Source of the DNA: an uncultured Chloroflexia bacterium
GTDB taxonomy: Bacteria; Chloroflexota; Limnocylindria; Limnocylindrales; CSP1-4
NCBI GenBank assembly: GCA_963712745.1
Contig: CAVQJC010000002.1
Location: 64,001-128,000 of the forward strand
Length of the DNA stretch: 64,000 nt
Direction: 5' to 3'
The translations under genes were made by a program, and so were the position numbers. Within the stretch, counting starts at the first letter, position 1. Every line of letters starts with the position of its first letter. Positions 37,058 through 45,217 of the stretch are shown in pieces. The notes beneath the pieces were generated by a model. That model saw only the letters and a program-made list of their open reading frames with translations, did not search any database and was not told the DNA's origin.

Positions 37058-39298
37058 TCAGGTGTCGCGAGCACCCAGGACGACAGCTGTCATGGCGGCC
37101 GGGTCGATGAGCCCGGCCCGTACCGCATGCTCCACAGCTTCAGCGCGCGTGGTCGCATCGAGCTTCCGATAGAGAGACATCACGTGGGTCTTGACGGTGT
37201 TCTCGGAGATGTGCAGGCGGTCGCCGATCTCACTGAACTTGAGATGCGTGGCCAGCATGGGGACGATGCGCAGCTCCGCCCCGGTCAGCGTCGACGCTCC
37301 CACCGAACCGCTGCGCAACTCGACCAGCTGGGCGCGGATCTCCTCGACCTCACCGTTGAGCATGCCCACATCGGGACGACGATGGAGGATGTCCCCGATC
37401 TCGAGGGCCAACGTCCTGGCGCCGGGCACGTCAGCCAGCGAGAGACGTGCACGAGCCAATTCGAGGCGGGTGATGAGCGCCAGCCCCGGCAAGGCCCACG
37501 TGAGCTGGGGCCGCAGGTTTTGCGCGTGGGCCAATCGGCGTCTGGCCTCGTCGGGTGCATCCATCGCGATGGCGACCCTGGCTGACAGTGCATCCTGGAA
37601 CGCCTGCGGGCCCTGCTCACCGAGCGCACCGATACGCCGGATCTCGTCCGCCGCATCCAGGAGATCACGAGCAGCGGAGATGTCCGAGCGGGCGAGCGCC
37701 AGCCGGGCCCGCAGTCCAAGGGCTATCGCTCGGGCATTGGGGGCGGCGCCCACGATGGCCCGCTCCCCACCGATGCTCGAAAGCACCGCCTCAGCCTGGT
37801 CGTCCTCGCCCTCGAGGAGCAAGGCGAAGCCGAGGGCAAGCCGTGTGGGACGCCACCAGGGGTGGGCGGGCGGGATGAGCTCACAGGCCAGTGCACCATC
37901 GACAAGCGACTGCGCCGCACCCCGCTCGCAGAACAGACTACGTACGAGCGCCTGCCAGCCATCGACTCCCGGGTCACCATCAGTGGTCCGGCCCCGCGGT
38001 TCCATCGCGTACAGGGCGCTGGCGAAGCGCTCCGCACGCTCGGCCTCTCCGCTCATGGCCAGAGCGATGGCTCCCGACATCGCCAACTCCGGCTCCACTC
38101 CCAGCAGGTCGCCTGCTTCGGCCCAGGCCCACCAGGCGTTGAGCGTCCCGGTCCTTCCCTGGCCGTACAGTTGCTGCGTATAGGCGGCCATCATCCGTAC
38201 CGTGGCGGCGTCATCTCCGGCGTGCTGTCGGTAGTGGACCGCTTCCACCGGCATCAGGTTCGCCGCATGCCATTCCGCTGCGCGCGTGCGCAGGAGCGCT
38301 GGCGACGCTGGATCCTCGCGCTCCAAGTTCGCCAACAGCGCCTCACGGATCAAGTCATGGCAGCGATGCCAGCGTTCATCGCCACCGAGAGCCATGACGA
38401 ATGCGTTGGAACGCTCAAGGTCCTGCAGGATCGCTCCTGATCCAGACTGCTGCAACACGAAGTCACACAAGGCCGGCGACATTCGGAGCAGGACCGAAGT
38501 CTGCAGCATGAAGCGCGACTCCTCAGGCGAGAGGTACGCGAGCAGCTCGGTACGCACGTACTCGGTGAACACGCGATCGCGTCCAGCCGGCTGCCAGCTC
38601 GCAACGAGTGACCCCGAGCCCAAGCCCGAGAGCGCAGCCAGACGTAGGCCCGCAGGCCAGCCCTCGCAGCGCTCATTCAGCCGCTCGGCATCCTCCTTCG
38701 TCGCCTCGACGCCGGTCGAGGACAGGAGCTCGAGCGCTTCCGTGTTCGAGAATCGCAGCTCCGCGGCGCCTATCTCCAGCAGGCGACGAGCCAGCCGGAT
38801 CCGGGCCAGGGGGAGCCCGTTCCCAGGCCGCCCGACCAGCATGATCTGCGAGTGCGTCGGCAGACTGAGCGCCAGTGCAGCGAGCACATCCAGCGCCTCC
38901 TGCGAGCTCAGCTCGTGGATGTCGTCGAACACGATGAGGATCGGAGCGATGGTGGACAGCGCAGCCAGCAGACGAGGCATGACGATCGCCCAGATCGACG
39001 CACCAGGCGCCGCCAGCCCGAGCCTCACGGAGGCGTCGATCTCCGACACTCGCTCGATGGCATCCACGAGTTTGGAGACCAGCACGACCGCGTCATCATC
39101 GTGCTGGTCGAGCGTCACCCACACGCTTGGGCGCTCCTGTCGCAGTGCGTGCTGGACCACGAACGTGGTCTTGCCGTAGCCAAGGGGCGCGAGGACAGCG
39201 ACGACCTCGGCAGGACGCAGCGCCGCGAGCAAACTGTGGCGCTCGACGGAACCGGCACGTAGCGGTGGCAGGAACGCGGTGCCAGCCCTGCGTTTCAT
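37058..39298 (-). CDS. MalT-like ATP-dependent LuxR regulator
   Basis: APLGYGKTT, FDDIH, EGWPAGL and C-terminal LuxR HTH (ISENTVKTH). Start position uncertain. Confidence 0.9.
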   Translation of the reverse strand: MKRRAGTAFLPPLRAGSVERHSLLAALRPAEVVAVLAPLGYGKTTFVVQHALRQERPSVWVTLDQHDDDAVVLVSKLVDAIERVSEIDASVRLGLAAPGASIWAIVMPRLLAALSTIAPILIVFDDIHELSSQEALDVLAALALSLPTHSQIMLVGRPGNGLPLARIRLARRLLEIGAAELRFSNTEALELLSSTGVEATKEDAERLNERCEGWPAGLRLAALSGLGSGSLVASWQPAGRDRVFTEYVRTELLAYLSPEESRFMLQTSVLLRMSPALCDFVLQQSGSGAILQDLERSNAFVMALGGDERWHRCHDLIREALLANLEREDPASPALLRTRAAEWHAANLMPVEAVHYRQHAGDDAATVRMMAAYTQQLYGQGRTGTLNAWWAWAEAGDLLGVEPELAMSGAIALAMSGEAERAERFASALYAMEPRGRTTDGDPGVDGWQALVRSLFCERGAAQSLVDGALACELIPPAHPWWRPTRLALGFALLLEGEDDQAEAVLSSIGGERAIVGAAPNARAIALGLRARLALARSDISAARDLLDAADEIRRIGALGEQGPQAFQDALSARVAIAMDAPDEARRRLAHAQNLRPQLTWALPGLALITRLELARARLSLADVPGARTLALEIGDILHRRPDVGMLNGEVEEIRAQLVELRSGSVGASTLTGAELRIVPMLATHLKFSEIGDRLHISENTVKTHVMSLYRKLDATTRAEAVEHAVRAGLIDPAAMTAVVLGARDT

Positions 39299-39378
39299 TC
39301 GGGAATAGTGCCCCATCGACCCGCCCGCCGTCCGGTGCCACAGGGCGGCGCTGACGCTCGCGCCCGGGTTCGTCCGGT

Positions 39379-39660
39379 CTAGTGCCACAGGCTACAGATC
39401 ACTGCGTACATGAACGCGTTCAGCCCTTCGTACGCATCCTCGCCGACGAGCCACGCGCCGAAGCGGCTTGCGCCAGGCATGCCAGCCACGTCGCCACCAA
39501 GGCCCAGTGCATCGCTCCACGTGCCTTGCTCTTCCTGGATGCGGACCGCTCCGGACGCATCTCTCGTATGGACAGCCACGTGTCCGTCGAGCCGGGGGTC
39601 GCTCGCATCCATGCTGCCCCTGAAGACGCGCTCAGCCACGCTCGAGGCCCCGTGGAGCCA
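39379..39660 (-). pseudogene. Second degenerate GEDAYEGL-family member
   Basis: ASDPRLDG...GTW...WLVGEDAYEGLNAF. Lacks a signal peptide and the proline-rich C-terminus. Confidence 0.55.
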
Positions 39661-41290: not shown

Positions 41291-42745
41291 CTACTCGGTC
41301 GTCGGCTCCAACGACTCGGGCGGCGGTGGCATCGTCCCGAAGTAGATGCCACCCTCGAACACCGACCTGACTCGGCTGGCCTCCTCAGGCGTCCTCTCGG
41401 CCAAGACCGCGTAGAGGCCCTCGTAGGCTCCGTGCCCGGTGAGGACGACCAGCCCACGGCAGCGGTCCTGCGCGTCACAGTAGCCGCTCCAAGGACCCGT
41501 CCAGTAGCCATCGGGACCCTCGAGCAGCCAGGTGCTGCTGATAGCCACGCCGGACTCACCGTACGCCTCGAAGTTCGTAACACCCTCACCCTGGCTGGGC
41601 AGACGCGAGTCGCTCCACTCGTACGCAGCCGTGTGCTTGAGTCCGCGGCCGTGCCCGACCGAGCCGGGCTGGTCGACCGGGCCCTCTTCGGAGAACTCCA
41701 TCTGGGACGGGTCCGTGCCCTGCCACAGCATGGAGCCGGTGACAAGGGCGGTCGGATCGGTGGCCGGCTCGTCCTGAGCAGCCTCAGCCGCGACCACCTC
41801 ACCGGCCAGGAACTGGTCCACGTTGTCGGCGGTCACGAGGATCGTCTCGATGGGGATGAACGGTTCGACCGTCTCGCCGGCCGCAGCCGCGATGGCGGCC
41901 TCGACGGCCTTCTGGCCCATGAGCCGGGGCTGCTGGGCCACCGTCGCGTCGATGCTGCCGTCCTTGACCATCGCGAGGATGTCCGGTTCGGTGTCGAACC
42001 CGACGACCCGGACCTGGCCCTCCATGCCTGCCGCGGAAACCCCTTCGATGGCCCCATAGAGCATGCCCAGGTTGGCGGCGAACACGCCGCCGATGTCGGG
42101 GTCCTCCTCGAGTGCCTGCTGCGTCGCCCGGAGCGCCATGCCGTATTCGAAGTAGGCCGGTGCCTGCACCACGCGGGTGATGCCGGGAGCGGCATCGAGC
42201 GCCTCCTGGAAGCCCTCGCTGCGCCGCGCACCGGACGACACCGCCATGTCACCCTGGATCTCGACGACCTTGCCAGCGCCACCCATCGTCTCGAAGAGGA
42301 ACTCCCCGGCCATCCGACCACCGGCCACGTTGTCAGAGGCGATGAGCGAGGCCACCGTGCCGCCACTCGCGGTGCGGTCCACGGCGAGGAGCGGTATCCC
42401 TGCTGCGTTGGCGGCCTCGACGGAAGCCACGATGGCGTCAGGGTCGACAGGGGTGATGATGATGGCGTCCACGCCTTTCTCGATGAAGCCGCGGACATGG
42501 TTCGCCTGCGTGGTGGGGCTCCCCCAGGCGGTCTCGACGAGGAGATCGACCCCAGCCGCCGCGGCGGCCTCCCGTGCGCCCGCCTCGATGTCGCTAAAGA
42601 AGCCGTCGTCCTGGAACACGTTGGTGAACCCGATGGTCGTGCTCGCGGCGGATGGCTGCTCCGACGACTCCTGCCCTGCTGCCGGCAGCCCGCCCAGCGC
42701 CAGACACAACACGATTGCCGCACTCGCGGCCCACATCCTGCGCAT
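41291..42745 (-). CDS. RbsB-like sugar-binding protein fused to a C-terminal GEDAYEGL-family domain
   Basis: Signal peptide; IASDNVAGG, VVGFD and TVAQQP motifs; C-terminal SDSRL...GYWTG...LTGHGAYEGLYA...GTMPPPP. Confidence 0.85.
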   Translation of the reverse strand: MRRMWAASAAIVLCLALGGLPAAGQESSEQPSAASTTIGFTNVFQDDGFFSDIEAGAREAAAAAGVDLLVETAWGSPTTQANHVRGFIEKGVDAIIITPVDPDAIVASVEAANAAGIPLLAVDRTASGGTVASLIASDNVAGGRMAGEFLFETMGGAGKVVEIQGDMAVSSGARRSEGFQEALDAAPGITRVVQAPAYFEYGMALRATQQALEEDPDIGGVFAANLGMLYGAIEGVSAAGMEGQVRVVGFDTEPDILAMVKDGSIDATVAQQPRLMGQKAVEAAIAAAAGETVEPFIPIETILVTADNVDQFLAGEVVAAEAAQDEPATDPTALVTGSMLWQGTDPSQMEFSEEGPVDQPGSVGHGRGLKHTAAYEWSDSRLPSQGEGVTNFEAYGESGVAISSTWLLEGPDGYWTGPWSGYCDAQDRCRGLVVLTGHGAYEGLYAVLAERTPEEASRVRSVFEGGIYFGTMPPPPESLEPTTE

Positions 42746-42767
42746 GACCCTACCCCCCCCTCACTTG

Positions 42768-42842
42768 CGCGGGCCGGGTCCGCCAGTGGCTTGGCACGGT
42801 CCCGGCGGCCAGGGTATGGGCCGTGCCTCATCGCCTCCCGCG
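42768..42842 (-). ncRNA. c-di-GMP-II-like riboswitch (copy 1)
   Basis: CGCGGGAGGCGATGAGGCACGG...CCGCC...CCGTGCCAAGCCACTGGCGGACCCGGCCCGCG: P1, GATGA kink-turn strand, P3 and CCGCC/GGCGG pseudoknot, just 5' of the RBS. Confidence 0.75.
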
Positions 42843-42965
42843 TATGCGTGGATTCTCCCACTCGTGGCTATCAGGTCAGCCTGAGACCAGGTACCGGCTG
42901 CGTATCCACCAAGTGCGAGATGGGCCCAAGGGCGGCGGTGCTGCGGGACGCGCTGGGAATAAGAT

Positions 42966-42993
42966 GAGGCCCGCCCCTCGTGGGACGGGCCTC
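42966..42993. terminator. GC hairpin 3' of the BNR-like gene (copy 2)
   Basis: GAGGCCCGCCCCTCGTGGGACGGGCCTC. Confidence 0.6.
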
Positions 42994-43030
42994 TTGGTCT
43001 TCGCATCGCCGGCGAGGTGCGGTCCATTGA

Positions 43031-44356
43031 TCAGGACTGGGGTGGGCTGAGGAGAGCGACAGAGACGAGGTCGTCGCCATCGTCAGTACCTGAGACGGTC
43101 ACGACCAGGCGGTCGCCGGCGACGGCCATGTCCACGTCGTAGATCCACATGCCAGCCACAGGCAGTATCGGCTGTGCCTCCTCCAGTGCCCAGTTGGTGC
43201 CGTCACTGGATGCCCAGAGCGCCAGCAGGTCGCCGTCCTGGCCCCCTTGCGCGCTCGGGCCCACGAGCAGGGCGAAGAAGTGGCCGCCCTGGACGGTGAG
43301 GGCCTTCAACTGGCCGTCCACGGGACTGCCGTAGGCGACATGCCACTCGGTGCCGTCAGGGGTGAGCAGCATGGCCGAGCCGCACGGGTCCAAGCAGATA
43401 GGGGCATCGACCACCAGCCGCTCCGCCACTGCGGCGACCGAGGTGATCGCGCCATGGGGACGGGGCATCGCGCTCGCCTCCTTCTTCCACGAGAGCCCGT
43501 CCGGCGAGCGCCAGAGCTGCCCCCAGCAGGTGCCGTTCCAGGCCCAGGGGTCCTTGTCGAAGGCTGGCATGCAGGCCTGTCCCACGGCGACGACGCCGTT
43601 TGCCAACAGTCCGGCCCCGCTTTCCGTGCCCGCATAGAAGCCGAAGGCGTCGACGCCCCCAGCCGATGGATCCTCCATCGTGTCGATGTAGCCACCGATC
43701 TCGAAGACCTCCTTGGCCCTGGCCTGGGTCCAGGTCTTGCCATCCGGACTGGACCAGATGGCGGCGCGAGGTGCCTTCTCGAGGTAGATGACGCCGCCCA
43801 GCAGGTAGCCGTCGTCGGCACCGAGCATCGTGCGCAGCCGGGTGCCCGTCGGGAAGGCGTCCATGGCGGTGGCCCGCTCCCATGATGTCCCATCGTCCGA
43901 GCGCCAGACCGCCGATCGCTGACCACCCTGCTCGGCCACGCGCCCGAAGACGAGGAAGCCCGCAGGGCCGTACGTGACCCCTTGCAGGCCGATCTCCGGG
44001 CCGCTGGTGGTGGGCCGCATGATTCCGAGGTCGAGGCCAGACGAGCGAGGGTCCACGGCCTCCCAGGTGATGCCATCGGGGCTGGTCCAGGCCGGCCCCC
44101 AGCAGCGCGACGTCTCTCGTCGCCCCTGGATGCAGGCCCGCTGCCCGACCGCGACCATCGATGATGGCCCGACCGCGATGCCGACAGCCATGGTCGTGCC
44201 GATGGTCTGGGGCAGCACGGTGGCTGTCCAGCCGTTCGCGCTTGCCGTGGTCTCGCCCCGGTCGTCTTGTGCTTGAGCCACCGGAGCCAGCGCCGGCACC
44301 CCACCGATCACGAGGAACGTCAACATAGCCGCAGCAGCGGCCCACGGACTGCGCAT
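43031..44356 (-). CDS. Secreted beta-propeller protein with Asp-box/BNR-like repeats
   Basis: Six W.S.DG..W-type repeats; signal peptide; AAGGAGG RBS. Confidence 0.75.
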   Translation of the reverse strand: MRSPWAAAAAMLTFLVIGGVPALAPVAQAQDDRGETTASANGWTATVLPQTIGTTMAVGIAVGPSSMVAVGQRACIQGRRETSRCWGPAWTSPDGITWEAVDPRSSGLDLGIMRPTTSGPEIGLQGVTYGPAGFLVFGRVAEQGGQRSAVWRSDDGTSWERATAMDAFPTGTRLRTMLGADDGYLLGGVIYLEKAPRAAIWSSPDGKTWTQARAKEVFEIGGYIDTMEDPSAGGVDAFGFYAGTESGAGLLANGVVAVGQACMPAFDKDPWAWNGTCWGQLWRSPDGLSWKKEASAMPRPHGAITSVAAVAERLVVDAPICLDPCGSAMLLTPDGTEWHVAYGSPVDGQLKALTVQGGHFFALLVGPSAQGGQDGDLLALWASSDGTNWALEEAQPILPVAGMWIYDVDMAVAGDRLVVTVSGTDDGDDLVSVALLSPPQS

Positions 44357-44379
44357 GACAAGCCTCCTTCGGCTCATGC

Positions 44380-44452
44380 GCGGGTCGGGTCCGCCAGTGG
44401 CTCGGCGCGGCCCCGGCGGCCAGGGTGTGGGCCGCGCCTCATCGCCTCCCGC
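44380..44452 (-). ncRNA. c-di-GMP-II-like riboswitch (copy 2)
   Basis: GCGGGAGGCGATGAGGCGCGG...CCGCC...CCGCGCCGAGCCACTGGCGGACCCGACCCGC. P3 shows a compensatory change relative to copy 1. Confidence 0.78.
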
Positions 44453-44561
44453 TCTGCTGGGTATGACGCCACAGCAGTAGCAGGTCGTTCAAGAGGCGGA
44501 GGTCACGAAGGCTCGCGGCGCTGTTTTCAGGGGTCCGTGGCGCTGTCCTCAGTGCCCAGCC

Positions 44562-45217
44562 GTGGTGTCGAACTCGGTATCGCTGCGGTAAAGGAGGGGC
44601 AGACGCCATGGGTGTCTGTGTCTATCCCTATGGGGATCTGGCTCACGGCGCTGAGCGTGGAGGGTGGTCGGTCGGTGGTTCGCGTCCTCGAGGCCGGTCA
44701 GGGCAGTTCCCTGATGATGGTGGCCTTGAAGGGCGCGGCCAGCAGCCCCAGGAGACGGGTGAAGACCGAATCGTCCGCCATCGCATGCATCGACGCCACC
44801 CGCGCCTCGGGTGACTCCCACTCGGCGATCTCCACCAACAGGTCGGGATCGTCGAGCACTTCGTAGCGCGAGCTGCCGAGGTAGCCGGGGACGGGCTCGT
44901 CCGGGACGTGGCTCACGAGCAGTCCCTTGAGCTCATCGCGCCGGCCAGGCTGGGCCCGCAGCTCGATGATGACCTTGACCGTCATGTCTGACCTCACCTA
45001 CGCGGACGCGGTCGACTCCTCCGCCATCCGGGGATGGAGCATAGGGCGTGGCGAGCAGCCCACCAAGAGCGCATCCCCTGTTCCCTGGGCACCGCTGTGG
45101 TGTCGAAGTCGGTGTGGCGCAGCTCGAGCAGGGATAGATGCCCATCGTGTCGGTCTCTATCCCTGGATGGATCTGGCTCGCGGCGCTAAGCGTGGAAGGT
45201 GGTCGGGTGGCGGTCGG
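44562..45217. repeat. Two diverged ~121-bp direct repeats (44562-44682 and 45097-45217) bracketing a small gene
   Basis: GTGGTGTCGAA.TCGGT...TCTATCCCT...GGATCTGGCTC.CGGCGCT.AGCGTGGA.GGTGGTCGG shared between copies. A partial third copy lies at 41111-41175. Confidence 0.75.
44698..44985 (-). CDS. Antibiotic biosynthesis monooxygenase (ABM) family protein
   Basis: AQPGRRDEL...PGYLG...EWES pattern; GAGG RBS. Confidence 0.75.
   Translation of the reverse strand: MTVKVIIELRAQPGRRDELKGLLVSHVPDEPVPGYLGSSRYEVLDDPDLLVEIAEWESPEARVASMHAMADDSVFTRLLGLLAAPFKATIIRELP

Follow-up and report, generated by a model that had tools for sequence, protein, structure and literature searches.

The 64,000-nt stretch of DNA analysed here (the window) corresponds to C2:64001-128000 in the assembly of an uncultured Chloroflexota metagenome-assembled genome (MAG; 4.2 Mb in 20 contigs, G+C 68-69%, completeness 84.55%, contamination 5.03%) whose near relatives carry the labels Limnocylindria or Limnocylindrales. 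Within the window, two copies of one RNA leader stand directly upstream of two consecutive genes for putative secreted proteins, here called gene A (unit 1) and gene B (unit 2), all on the reverse strand (Table 1). A cmscan search of the entire window at Rfam gathering thresholds returned three tRNAs and two matches to RF03170 (c-di-GMP-II-GCG, clan CL00127), a variant family of the class II cyclic di-GMP (c-di-GMP) riboswitches, and these two matches are the leaders. A separate permissive scan limited to positions 42600-44700 gave no further match with E < 0.9. Both leaders are almost certainly members of the c-di-GMP-II clan, and we consider it fairly probable that they form a pair of translational riboswitches of the c-di-GMP-II fold, probably switched on by their ligand and probably sensing c-di-GMP.

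Table 1. Coordinates of the two riboswitch units and their flanking features (positions of the window)
Feature	Position	Strand	Details
Gene A	41291..42745	-	484 aa; signal-peptide-like N-terminus; Peripla_BP_4 at residues 38-291 (PF13407, E 1.4e-57)
Ribosome-binding site of gene A	42753..42762	-	G-rich, GAGGGGGGGG; begins 1 nt past the aptamer 1 match
Aptamer 1	42763..42847	-	c-di-GMP-II clan, best model RF03170; pocket A69 = 42779, C70 = 42778, G73 = 42775 (cmscan alignment)
Terminator-like hairpin after gene B	42966..42993	-	12-pair stem, tail AUCUUAUUCC; 1 site found, 0.4 expected from shuffles
Gene B	43031..44356	-	441 aa from the ATG at 44356; signal-peptide-like N-terminus; beta-propeller
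Predicted alternative hairpin, unit 2	44342..44393	-	-22.4 kcal/mol, z -1.97; 7/200 shuffles at least as good
Ribosome-binding site of gene B	44363..44369	-	AAGGAGG; upstream of the ATG at 44356
Aptamer 2	44374..44458	-	c-di-GMP-II clan, best model RF03170; pocket A69 = 44390, C70 = 44389, G73 = 44386 (cmscan alignment)
Conserved upstream block, unit 2	44487..44506	-	GUGACCUCCGCCUCUUGAAC

Aptamer 1 matched RF03170 with 67.5 bits (E 2.9e-10) and aptamer 2 with 59.1 bits (E 3.2e-08), each along the full model (1-85 of 85) and above the gathering cut-off of 47.9 bits. RF03170 was the best model within the clan, and the canonical family RF01786 stayed under its own cut-off of 53.5 bits for both copies (45.4 and 37.7 bits, respectively). 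The two aptamers are identical at 71 of 85 positions. Their cmscan alignments show a P1 stem, a GAUGA motif and a loop CCGCC opposite GGCGG in each copy, while the P3 stem carries a compensatory change between copies, from GCACGG/CCGUGC in copy 1 to GCGCGG/CCGCGC in copy 2 (A-U to G-C). A preliminary description of this DNA had claimed class II aptamers with a P1 stem, GATGA, a compensatory P3 and a CCGCC/GGCGG pseudoknot, repeated just before the ribosome-binding sites of two secreted-protein genes. This is borne out by the full-length RF03170 matches, by the visibility of every listed element in both alignments and by the ATG that lies 17 nt past the aptamer in each unit and opens a protein with a signal-peptide-like N-terminus; signal-peptide calls throughout were made by eye or with a crude hydrophobic-window rule. 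The motif strings named there are partly right: GGAGGC is present, as is ACCCG(G/A)CC, in which copy 1 reads ACCCGGCC instead of ACCCGACC. For the comparison with RF01786 and the variant families that it proposed, the scores are those given above; for the further genome copies and cyclase genes that it proposed to look for, 47 elements and eight GGDEF domains are discussed below.

Conservation of the fold was assessed in an alignment of 69 distinct aptamers, of which this genome supplied 40, ten other genomes of the genus 17 and a pattern scan of public contigs 12. Seven copies of this genome were left out: h15 and h22 as exact duplicates, h44 and h47 as truncated, h36 and h42 as degenerate, and h40 for its long insertion. 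With the Rfam structure plus the pseudoknot, standard pairs fill 75.7% of the cells, compared with 32-47% once the 3' partners have been displaced by 1-3 columns; both-sided changes occur in 16 of the 27 pairs, and the observed covariation score was reached by none of 500 shuffles. Since the aligned aptamers are related sequences, these pairing and covariation numbers count as support and not as a probability. P3 is the main carrier of the covariation, with both-sided changes in seven of its eight pairs, while P2 and four pseudoknot pairs are nearly invariant, the pseudoknot pairs being formed in 64-68 of the 69 aptamers. P1 retains its inner five pairs (GCGGG/CCCGC) in 61-68 aptamers, and the outer six model pairs are unpaired in 38-56. 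The arrangement of RF03170, with P1, P2 and P3 plus a loop-to-junction pseudoknot and compensatory change, is present across the 69 aptamers. Nucleotides of the pocket and the pseudoknot reach 90% conservation or more among these distinct copies, which come from several species. The public-contig pattern scan had returned at least 116 loci, and an nhmmer profile located the aptamer in 12 of these; the other 104 were rejected as chance matches in GC-rich genomes, and the scan gives no distribution of the elements.

The ligand pocket was read by comparing the leaders with cmscan printouts of canonical class II elements from other Chloroflexota and of GAG- and GCG-type elements. RF01786, RF03169 (c-di-GMP-II-GAG) and RF03170 have a common model layout of 11+1+3+6+8+loop+8+3+3+14+11 positions, in which the loop counts 16, 18 and 17 positions, respectively, and the 14-nt junction between the 3' strands of P2 and P1 has the same spacing in all three. 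In the solved canonical structure (3Q3Z, as described in PMC13715770), the first P2 pair is an A-U pair (A14-U60) that lies beside the ligand backbone, with a ceiling adenine next to it; the sugar edge of A69 reads the upper guanine (G-alpha), G73 reads the lower guanine (G-beta) and A70 is intercalated between both ligand bases (PMC13715770). We take the ceiling adenine, with which the junction begins, to be A61; counting from there, positions 69, 70 and 73 fall on junction bases 9, 10 and 13. The junction consensus is AGUgGUGCAACCGg in RF01786, AgUGGCGAGACCGa in RF03169 and AgUGGCGAGCCCGa in RF03170, which places A, A, G (canonical), G, A, G and G, C, G at these three positions. From the consensus lines and the numbering of PMC13715770, we infer that the family names GAG and GCG spell positions 69, 70 and 73.

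The window junctions, ACUGGCGGACCCGG and ACUGGCGGACCCGA, give A69, C70 and G73 in both copies. This triple agrees with the second and third letters of RF03170 but not with the first, departs from RF03169 (G69-A70-G73) at 69 and 70, and departs from canonical RF01786 by the C at 70, with A12, A61, A69 and G73 all present. Only one pocket nucleotide departs from the canonical family, the intercalating A70 having become C while the floor A12 and the ceiling A61 are unchanged, and ACG reads as a fourth combination next to canonical AAG and the catalogued GAG and GCG. Because the name-giving G69 is missing, we file the elements as an 'ACG' variant of the c-di-GMP-II clan and not as plain RF03170. 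The preliminary description had placed G and C at two normally adenosine pocket positions and had suggested a GCG-type variant. The C at 70 is correct, whereas the G of GGAGGC forms the first pair of P2, which is g-c in the RF01786 consensus as well; similarly, RF03170 is indeed the best-scoring family, but position 69 is A in both copies, hence ACG. Because A69 is kept, the window elements are closer to the canonical family than a true GCG aptamer is, and this weakens the inference of a ligand other than c-di-GMP that had been drawn from the variant pocket.

The elements belong to a catalogued family cluster and do not represent a new kind of system. They share helices, the GGCG/CGCC pseudoknot, C70 and G73 with RF03170, but differ from it in having A69 in place of the consensus G69 and in keeping only the inner five of the 11 pairs of the model P1. 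With RF01786 they have in common the architecture, the 14-nt junction spacing, A12, A61, A69 and G73, as well as the G-C first P2 pair that is common in the RF01786 consensus. The differences from RF01786 are C70 in place of the intercalating A, a GGCG/CGCC pseudoknot where the canonical one is GUGC/GCAC, and position in the transcript, as the canonical members of the phylum use terminators whereas the window elements abut the ribosome-binding site. RF03169, which belongs to the same clan, has the same pseudoknot sequence and is set apart by its pocket. The features that go beyond the catalogue are the ACG pocket, the direct junction to the ribosome-binding site and a regulon of 47 copies.

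ACG is the prevailing triple among the 69 aligned aptamers (57 ACG, six GCG, two AAG, two ACA, one GCA and one ACC), and a regular-expression count over all 47 copies of the genome gave 35 ACG, three AAG, one GCG, three other and five unparsed. ACG also occurs in another Chloroflexota family (L188-L191), and a single aptamer scoring above the canonical cut-off, at sister-genus locus L063 (65.3 bits), has C70 as well. The three AAG paralogues with canonical A70 are h27 (C17:173582-173667), h30 (C7:68231-68315) and h40 (C17:38849-38951); they share the scaffold and offer natural controls for what C70 does.

With the pocket read in this way, c-di-GMP is the ligand that we would name for the ACG aptamers, if only with limited confidence; that they bind something else is possible though doubtful, and another guanine-containing cyclic dinucleotide seems improbable. 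c-di-GMP is favoured because A69 and G73 are kept, because the paralogues h27, h30 and h40 carry canonical A70 and because C70 is also found in the canonical-scoring L063. It is favoured further because the genome encodes eight GGDEF domains, with EAL domains at four places, and because none of its 37 RF01786 matches passes the cut-off, which leaves it with no canonical class II element. The Asp of the GHxxGD motif is present in six of the GGDEF domains and replaced by Asn in one, and one domain is degenerate. A Ser or Thr at this Asp position marks GGDEF enzymes that make cyclic GMP-AMP (cGAMP), and neither residue occurs there in any of the eight domains. The domain with Asn lies at C17:336188-336646 and might differ in nucleotide specificity. 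One EAL domain was matched as two adjacent pieces (C20:465497-466190), which may reflect a frameshift or an assembly error.

Alternatively, the ACG pocket may sense another ligand, such as 3',3'-cGAMP, c-di-AMP, a linear dinucleotide (pGpG) or a new signal, with the same fold and the same point of control. We hold this to be possible on present evidence but rather unlikely, although several observations weigh for it and against c-di-GMP. The intercalating A70, at the core of the solved pocket, is replaced in 67 of the 69 aptamers, and a C in its place could change affinity or specificity. Small changes are able to retune the class II scaffold between cyclic dinucleotides: c-di-GMP-II-Bh, an engineered deletion variant of a Bacillus aptamer, tolerates changes at the pocket edge and can bind 3',3'- and 2',3'-cGAMP, single-nucleotide or single-pair changes switch the scaffold among c-di-GMP, 3',3'-cGAMP and 2',3'-cGAMP, and the A9G/U55C pair change shifts the dissociation constant several-fold (PMC13715770). 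The window copies have a G-C pair at the position of that mutant pair (G13-C60), but unlike them c-di-GMP-II-Bh keeps the intercalating adenine and has no natural regulon (PMC13715770). One true GCG copy coexists with the ACG copies in the same genome, which would fit two different ligands, and the genome also encodes a c-di-AMP synthase (DAC) domain, while a model scan of the genome found no known c-di-AMP riboswitch. The GEMM-Ib cGAMP riboswitches are a precedent for the retuning of ligand specificity by one pocket substitution. Weinberg et al. 2017 (PNAS 114:E2077), who reportedly defined RF03170, are also said to have proposed that such variants might sense other signals. The searchable literature, which leaves most subscription papers outside, yielded no published ligand for RF03170 and merely lists the family name among Rfam models; likewise, it contained nothing on c-di-GMP-II in Chloroflex beyond such listings. 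Against another ligand stand the unchanged guanine-face readers A69 and G73, the three paralogues with A70 in the same scaffold, the C70 of L063 in an aptamer that passes the canonical model and the lack of the Ser/Thr cGAMP signature in all eight GGDEF domains. Nor did a search of the genome, which is 84.55% complete, recover a SMODS-type cyclase.

Were another ligand to be bound, the variant would be a new specificity class. A more far-reaching version, to which we give a somewhat lower chance still, is that ACG is a fourth specificity class that has been copied together with a ribosome-binding site and an export signal before about 45 unrelated genes, while the GCG copy reads a second signal. 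If so, this would be among the largest single-genome riboswitch regulons known, and a single cell would follow two nucleotide messengers by means of two retuned forms of one RNA fold, with much of the secretome governed by one of these messengers. The GAG and GCG variants are catalogued as orphan riboswitches, and the locus provides a tool-based reading of their names (positions 69, 70 and 73), in which the abundant elements of this lineage appear as a distinct ACG combination that retains both base-reading nucleotides. About 40 ACG, three AAG and one GCG copies on near-identical scaffolds in one genome make the question of the ligand directly testable.

Returning to a pair of c-di-GMP-II riboswitches that probably sense c-di-GMP, control is likely to be exerted on translation. 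No terminator would fit between aptamer and ribosome-binding site, so that either translation or mRNA stability would be the controlled step, and translation is indicated because the first plausible start in most units of the genome lies 1-20 nt past the aptamer match behind a G-rich ribosome-binding site. In the mechanism that we propose, the C-rich pocket and the 3' strand of P1 (positions about 66-85) would be free to pair when ligand is absent, with the G-rich ribosome-binding site in unit 1 and with the start-codon region in unit 2. Binding of the ligand would lock this strand into P1 and the pocket and so free the initiation region, giving an ON switch. The direction leans towards ON by a small measure, because of the terminator wiring of relatives, the alternative hairpins of the window units and a rise in modelled accessibility.

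In the local fold of unit 1 (-20.3 kcal/mol, z -1.59), the G run of the ribosome-binding site and GGGUC pair with GACCC/GCCC of the pocket and the P1 3' strand. In the hairpin predicted for unit 2 (Table 1), aptamer strand 66-70 and GCGCAUGAGCC would pair with GGC...UCAUGCGC and GUCCG, burying the AUG; the proposed switching strand is GCGCAUGA, with UCAUGCGC as its partner. Six of ten canonical class II loci of other Chloroflexota carry, at most 6 nt past the aptamer, an exact complement to the final six bases of the AACCGRCC strand, and five to seven T follow it within the next eight bases. This complement scan covered 14 of 17 loci, the remaining three (L185-L187) being judged from folds alone, and the same arm pairing is seen in the folds of L064 and L067, there without a T run, and in those of the ACG-type L188 and L190. 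Such terminator-bearing class II relatives would be wired as ON switches, because a P1 held by ligand would block the hairpin. When P1 and P2 were enforced and the junction was blocked, the mean modelled probability that the Shine-Dalgarno sequence and AUG are unpaired increased from 0.48 to 0.59, with a rise in 31 of 38 units, and in unit 1 it increased from 0.66 to 0.84. The class II c-di-GMP riboswitches studied in Clostridioides difficile are ON switches.

Other results of the same modelling tell against an ON switch of this design. Under the constraint described, the accessibility of unit 2 stayed flat (0.45 to 0.45); moreover, the paralogous units are not independent, and blocking any partner strand tends to raise modelled accessibility. 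Across the family, hairpins between the P1 3' strand and AUG+15 were no better than shuffles (mean z -0.21, a fraction of 0.24 of 41 below -1), and folds from position 66 onwards had a mean z of +0.34, with 4 of 38 below -1.5. Duplex energies of cognate compared with non-cognate pairs showed no excess (mean z -0.20, 11 of 41 below -1), the longest perfect match averaged 6.20 nt for cognate and 6.09 nt for non-cognate pairs, and the full-length folds of the two window units were ordinary (z -0.68 and -0.50). A hairpin that sequesters the start site was accordingly dropped as a feature of the family, given that the family-wide fold and complementarity tests were null. In unit 2 itself, a 9-nt match of aptamer positions 24-32 with codons 4-7 is no more than suggestive, an equal or longer match being present in 23 of 1446 non-cognate pairs.

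The null statistics leave room for a switch of the opposite sign, in which ligand turns translation OFF, the compact fold 6-10 nt upstream of the ribosome-binding site hindering 30S loading, or in which it acts on mRNA stability. The family-wide folds do not support a conserved sequestering helix, and the sole constant feature is the close spacing of P1 to the ribosome-binding site, both of which would suit such a switch. It nevertheless seems unlikely, as the terminator-bearing relatives in the phylum are wired as ON switches, alternative hairpins of moderate stability are predicted to bury the Shine-Dalgarno sequence or the AUG in the window units, and ON is the direction reported for Clostridioides difficile. 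An ON switch also receives weak support from an RNA-library contig (run X2, record 9) that agrees with the window at every base from 42650 to 42813 and runs from within aptamer 1 into the start of gene A; RNA libraries can contain DNA, and contigs reveal no molecule ends. The shares in metatranscriptome runs X1 and X2 were small (0.13 and 0.07). Most of the contigs there, several of them short, match the aptamer cores only (42769-42844 and 44380-44453, 90-99%) and continue into unlike sequence on both sides, and these probably derive from paralogues or relatives in the community.

The two leaders belong to a large set. At E <= 0.001, RF03170 has 47 matches in this genome, of which 32 lie above the gathering cut-off. 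Among 24 further genomes sampled from the genus, 23 have between 1 and 31 copies and the other, which is 57% complete, has none; no match occurs in any of 16 genomes of about 1.1 Mb from a neighbouring family. In an even sample of the phylum, RF03170 passed its cut-off in 21 of 151 genomes, with at most seven copies in any genome of that sample other than this one, and canonical RF01786 passed in 25 of the 151. Both tallies include genome G184, flagged as unpublished, which is among the 25 but not among the 21; no further claim depends on it.

Pfam analysis of 45 downstream open reading frames (ORFs) recognised the sugar-binding protein of the window, three SRPBCC proteins, five class I methyltransferases, a rhodanese, an alpha/beta hydrolase, a 4Fe-4S protein and a META-domain protein, with weaker matches to a cupin, a deaminase and a dynamin-like GTPase, and found no family for 24 of the ORFs. 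The hydrophobic-window rule scored 25 of 42 N-termini as signal-peptide-like in a run in which several start codons were mis-set; combined with the ORF list and read by eye, it gave about 31 of 47 downstream proteins with a signal-peptide-like start. The regulon would place dozens of secreted proteins under the control of a nucleotide second messenger, in a Chloroflexota group of soil and freshwater that is uncultured. Large GEMM-I (c-di-GMP-I) regulons, for example of about 30 copies in one Geobacter genome, likewise place many copies before exported or surface proteins, and class I sets are not known to exceed about 30 copies. The fold there is that of class I, whereas here 47 copies are joined to signal-peptide gene heads. 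A search of this genome for c-di-GMP-I (RF01051) gave no match, and its control gave none anywhere either. GEMM-I regulons and GEMM-Ib cGAMP riboswitches are reportedly treated in Sudarsan 2008, Kellenberger 2015 and Nelson 2015.

The type that has expanded in the genus is ACG, and it coexists there with a single-copy GCG type. Unlike the ACG copies, true GCG elements (GAGCAGUGGCGAGCCCGGUCCCG) precede a small membrane protein with a shared N-terminal motif in all six cases seen, namely h03 of this genome (C7:63326-63413; L003:1501-1588, reverse strand), L055, L056, L107, L124 and L162. The protein downstream of h03 is DUF5658-like (E 4.9e-05, just short of the Pfam cut-off), and a gene of this kind may be what the variant originally controlled.

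Across units, the mean pairwise identity is above its background of 0.29 in one stretch only, which opens about 20 nt upstream of the aptamer and closes about 75 nt inside the gene. Although these shared flanks around 47 copies, together with truncated or degenerate members (h36, h42, h44 and h47), could suggest relics spread via a duplicated promoter-leader-signal-peptide head and no longer sensing, this is very improbable given stems maintained by compensatory changes while loops drift, the high conservation of pocket and pseudoknot nucleotides among the 69 copies and the retention of the element in nearly all sampled genomes of the genus.

In the window, the terminator-like hairpin lies between gene B and aptamer 1, and units 1 and 2 are probably separate transcription units. 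The C-terminus of gene A, about 190 residues, has no family match, and a Pfam-type scan recognised no ATP-binding cassette (ABC) permease or ATPase family in the ORFs that follow the gene. Gene B contains repeated S-x-D-G-x-x-W motifs, and Pfam gave no family for it even with E values up to 1 allowed. All 128 of its homologues lack a name or are called 'hypothetical', and a few carry the label Candidatus Limnocylindrales or Limnocylindria. Its predicted structure is an all-beta propeller (predicted local distance difference test score, pLDDT, 85.9; predicted template modelling score, pTM, 0.86), and Foldseek matched the model to sortilin Vps10p, sialidases, CylK and kelch propellers with template modelling (TM) scores of 0.3-0.5. 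A longer gene B ORF, listed from 44377, would start within aptamer 2.

The same or a nearly identical upstream block as that of unit 2 also precedes h06, h15, h27, L050, L052, L120 and L146, and it is possibly a promoter region; a strict sigma-70 promoter scan of 42600-44700 returned no sites. Read by eye, about one-third of the units have an upstream block of the form ..CAUGGCGAUUC..(about 25 nt)..GGACGCCCGCGAGAGAAUCG, for example at L045 ~1460-1518 before h45. The ends of this block, GCGAUUCUC and GAGAGAAUCGC, are inverted repeats, and the block could be a stem-loop that punctuates gene cassettes instead of a promoter. Unit 2 is repeated at C20:4101-4185 (L015), with an identical aptamer and 30 nt upstream, one base different farther upstream and a gene B protein 99% identical to that of the window, which points to duplication in the very recent past or else to two strains in the bin. 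A further example of the unit is found at L120, titled as an uncultured Gammaproteobacteria MAG, where the upstream block, an ACG aptamer, a G-rich ribosome-binding site and an MRTLRLSL signal peptide occur together; this contig is probably mis-binned or mislabelled. Elsewhere in the window, a 776-aa ORF (37058-39388, reverse strand) has a C-terminal LuxR-type (GerE) helix-turn-helix as its sole recognised part.

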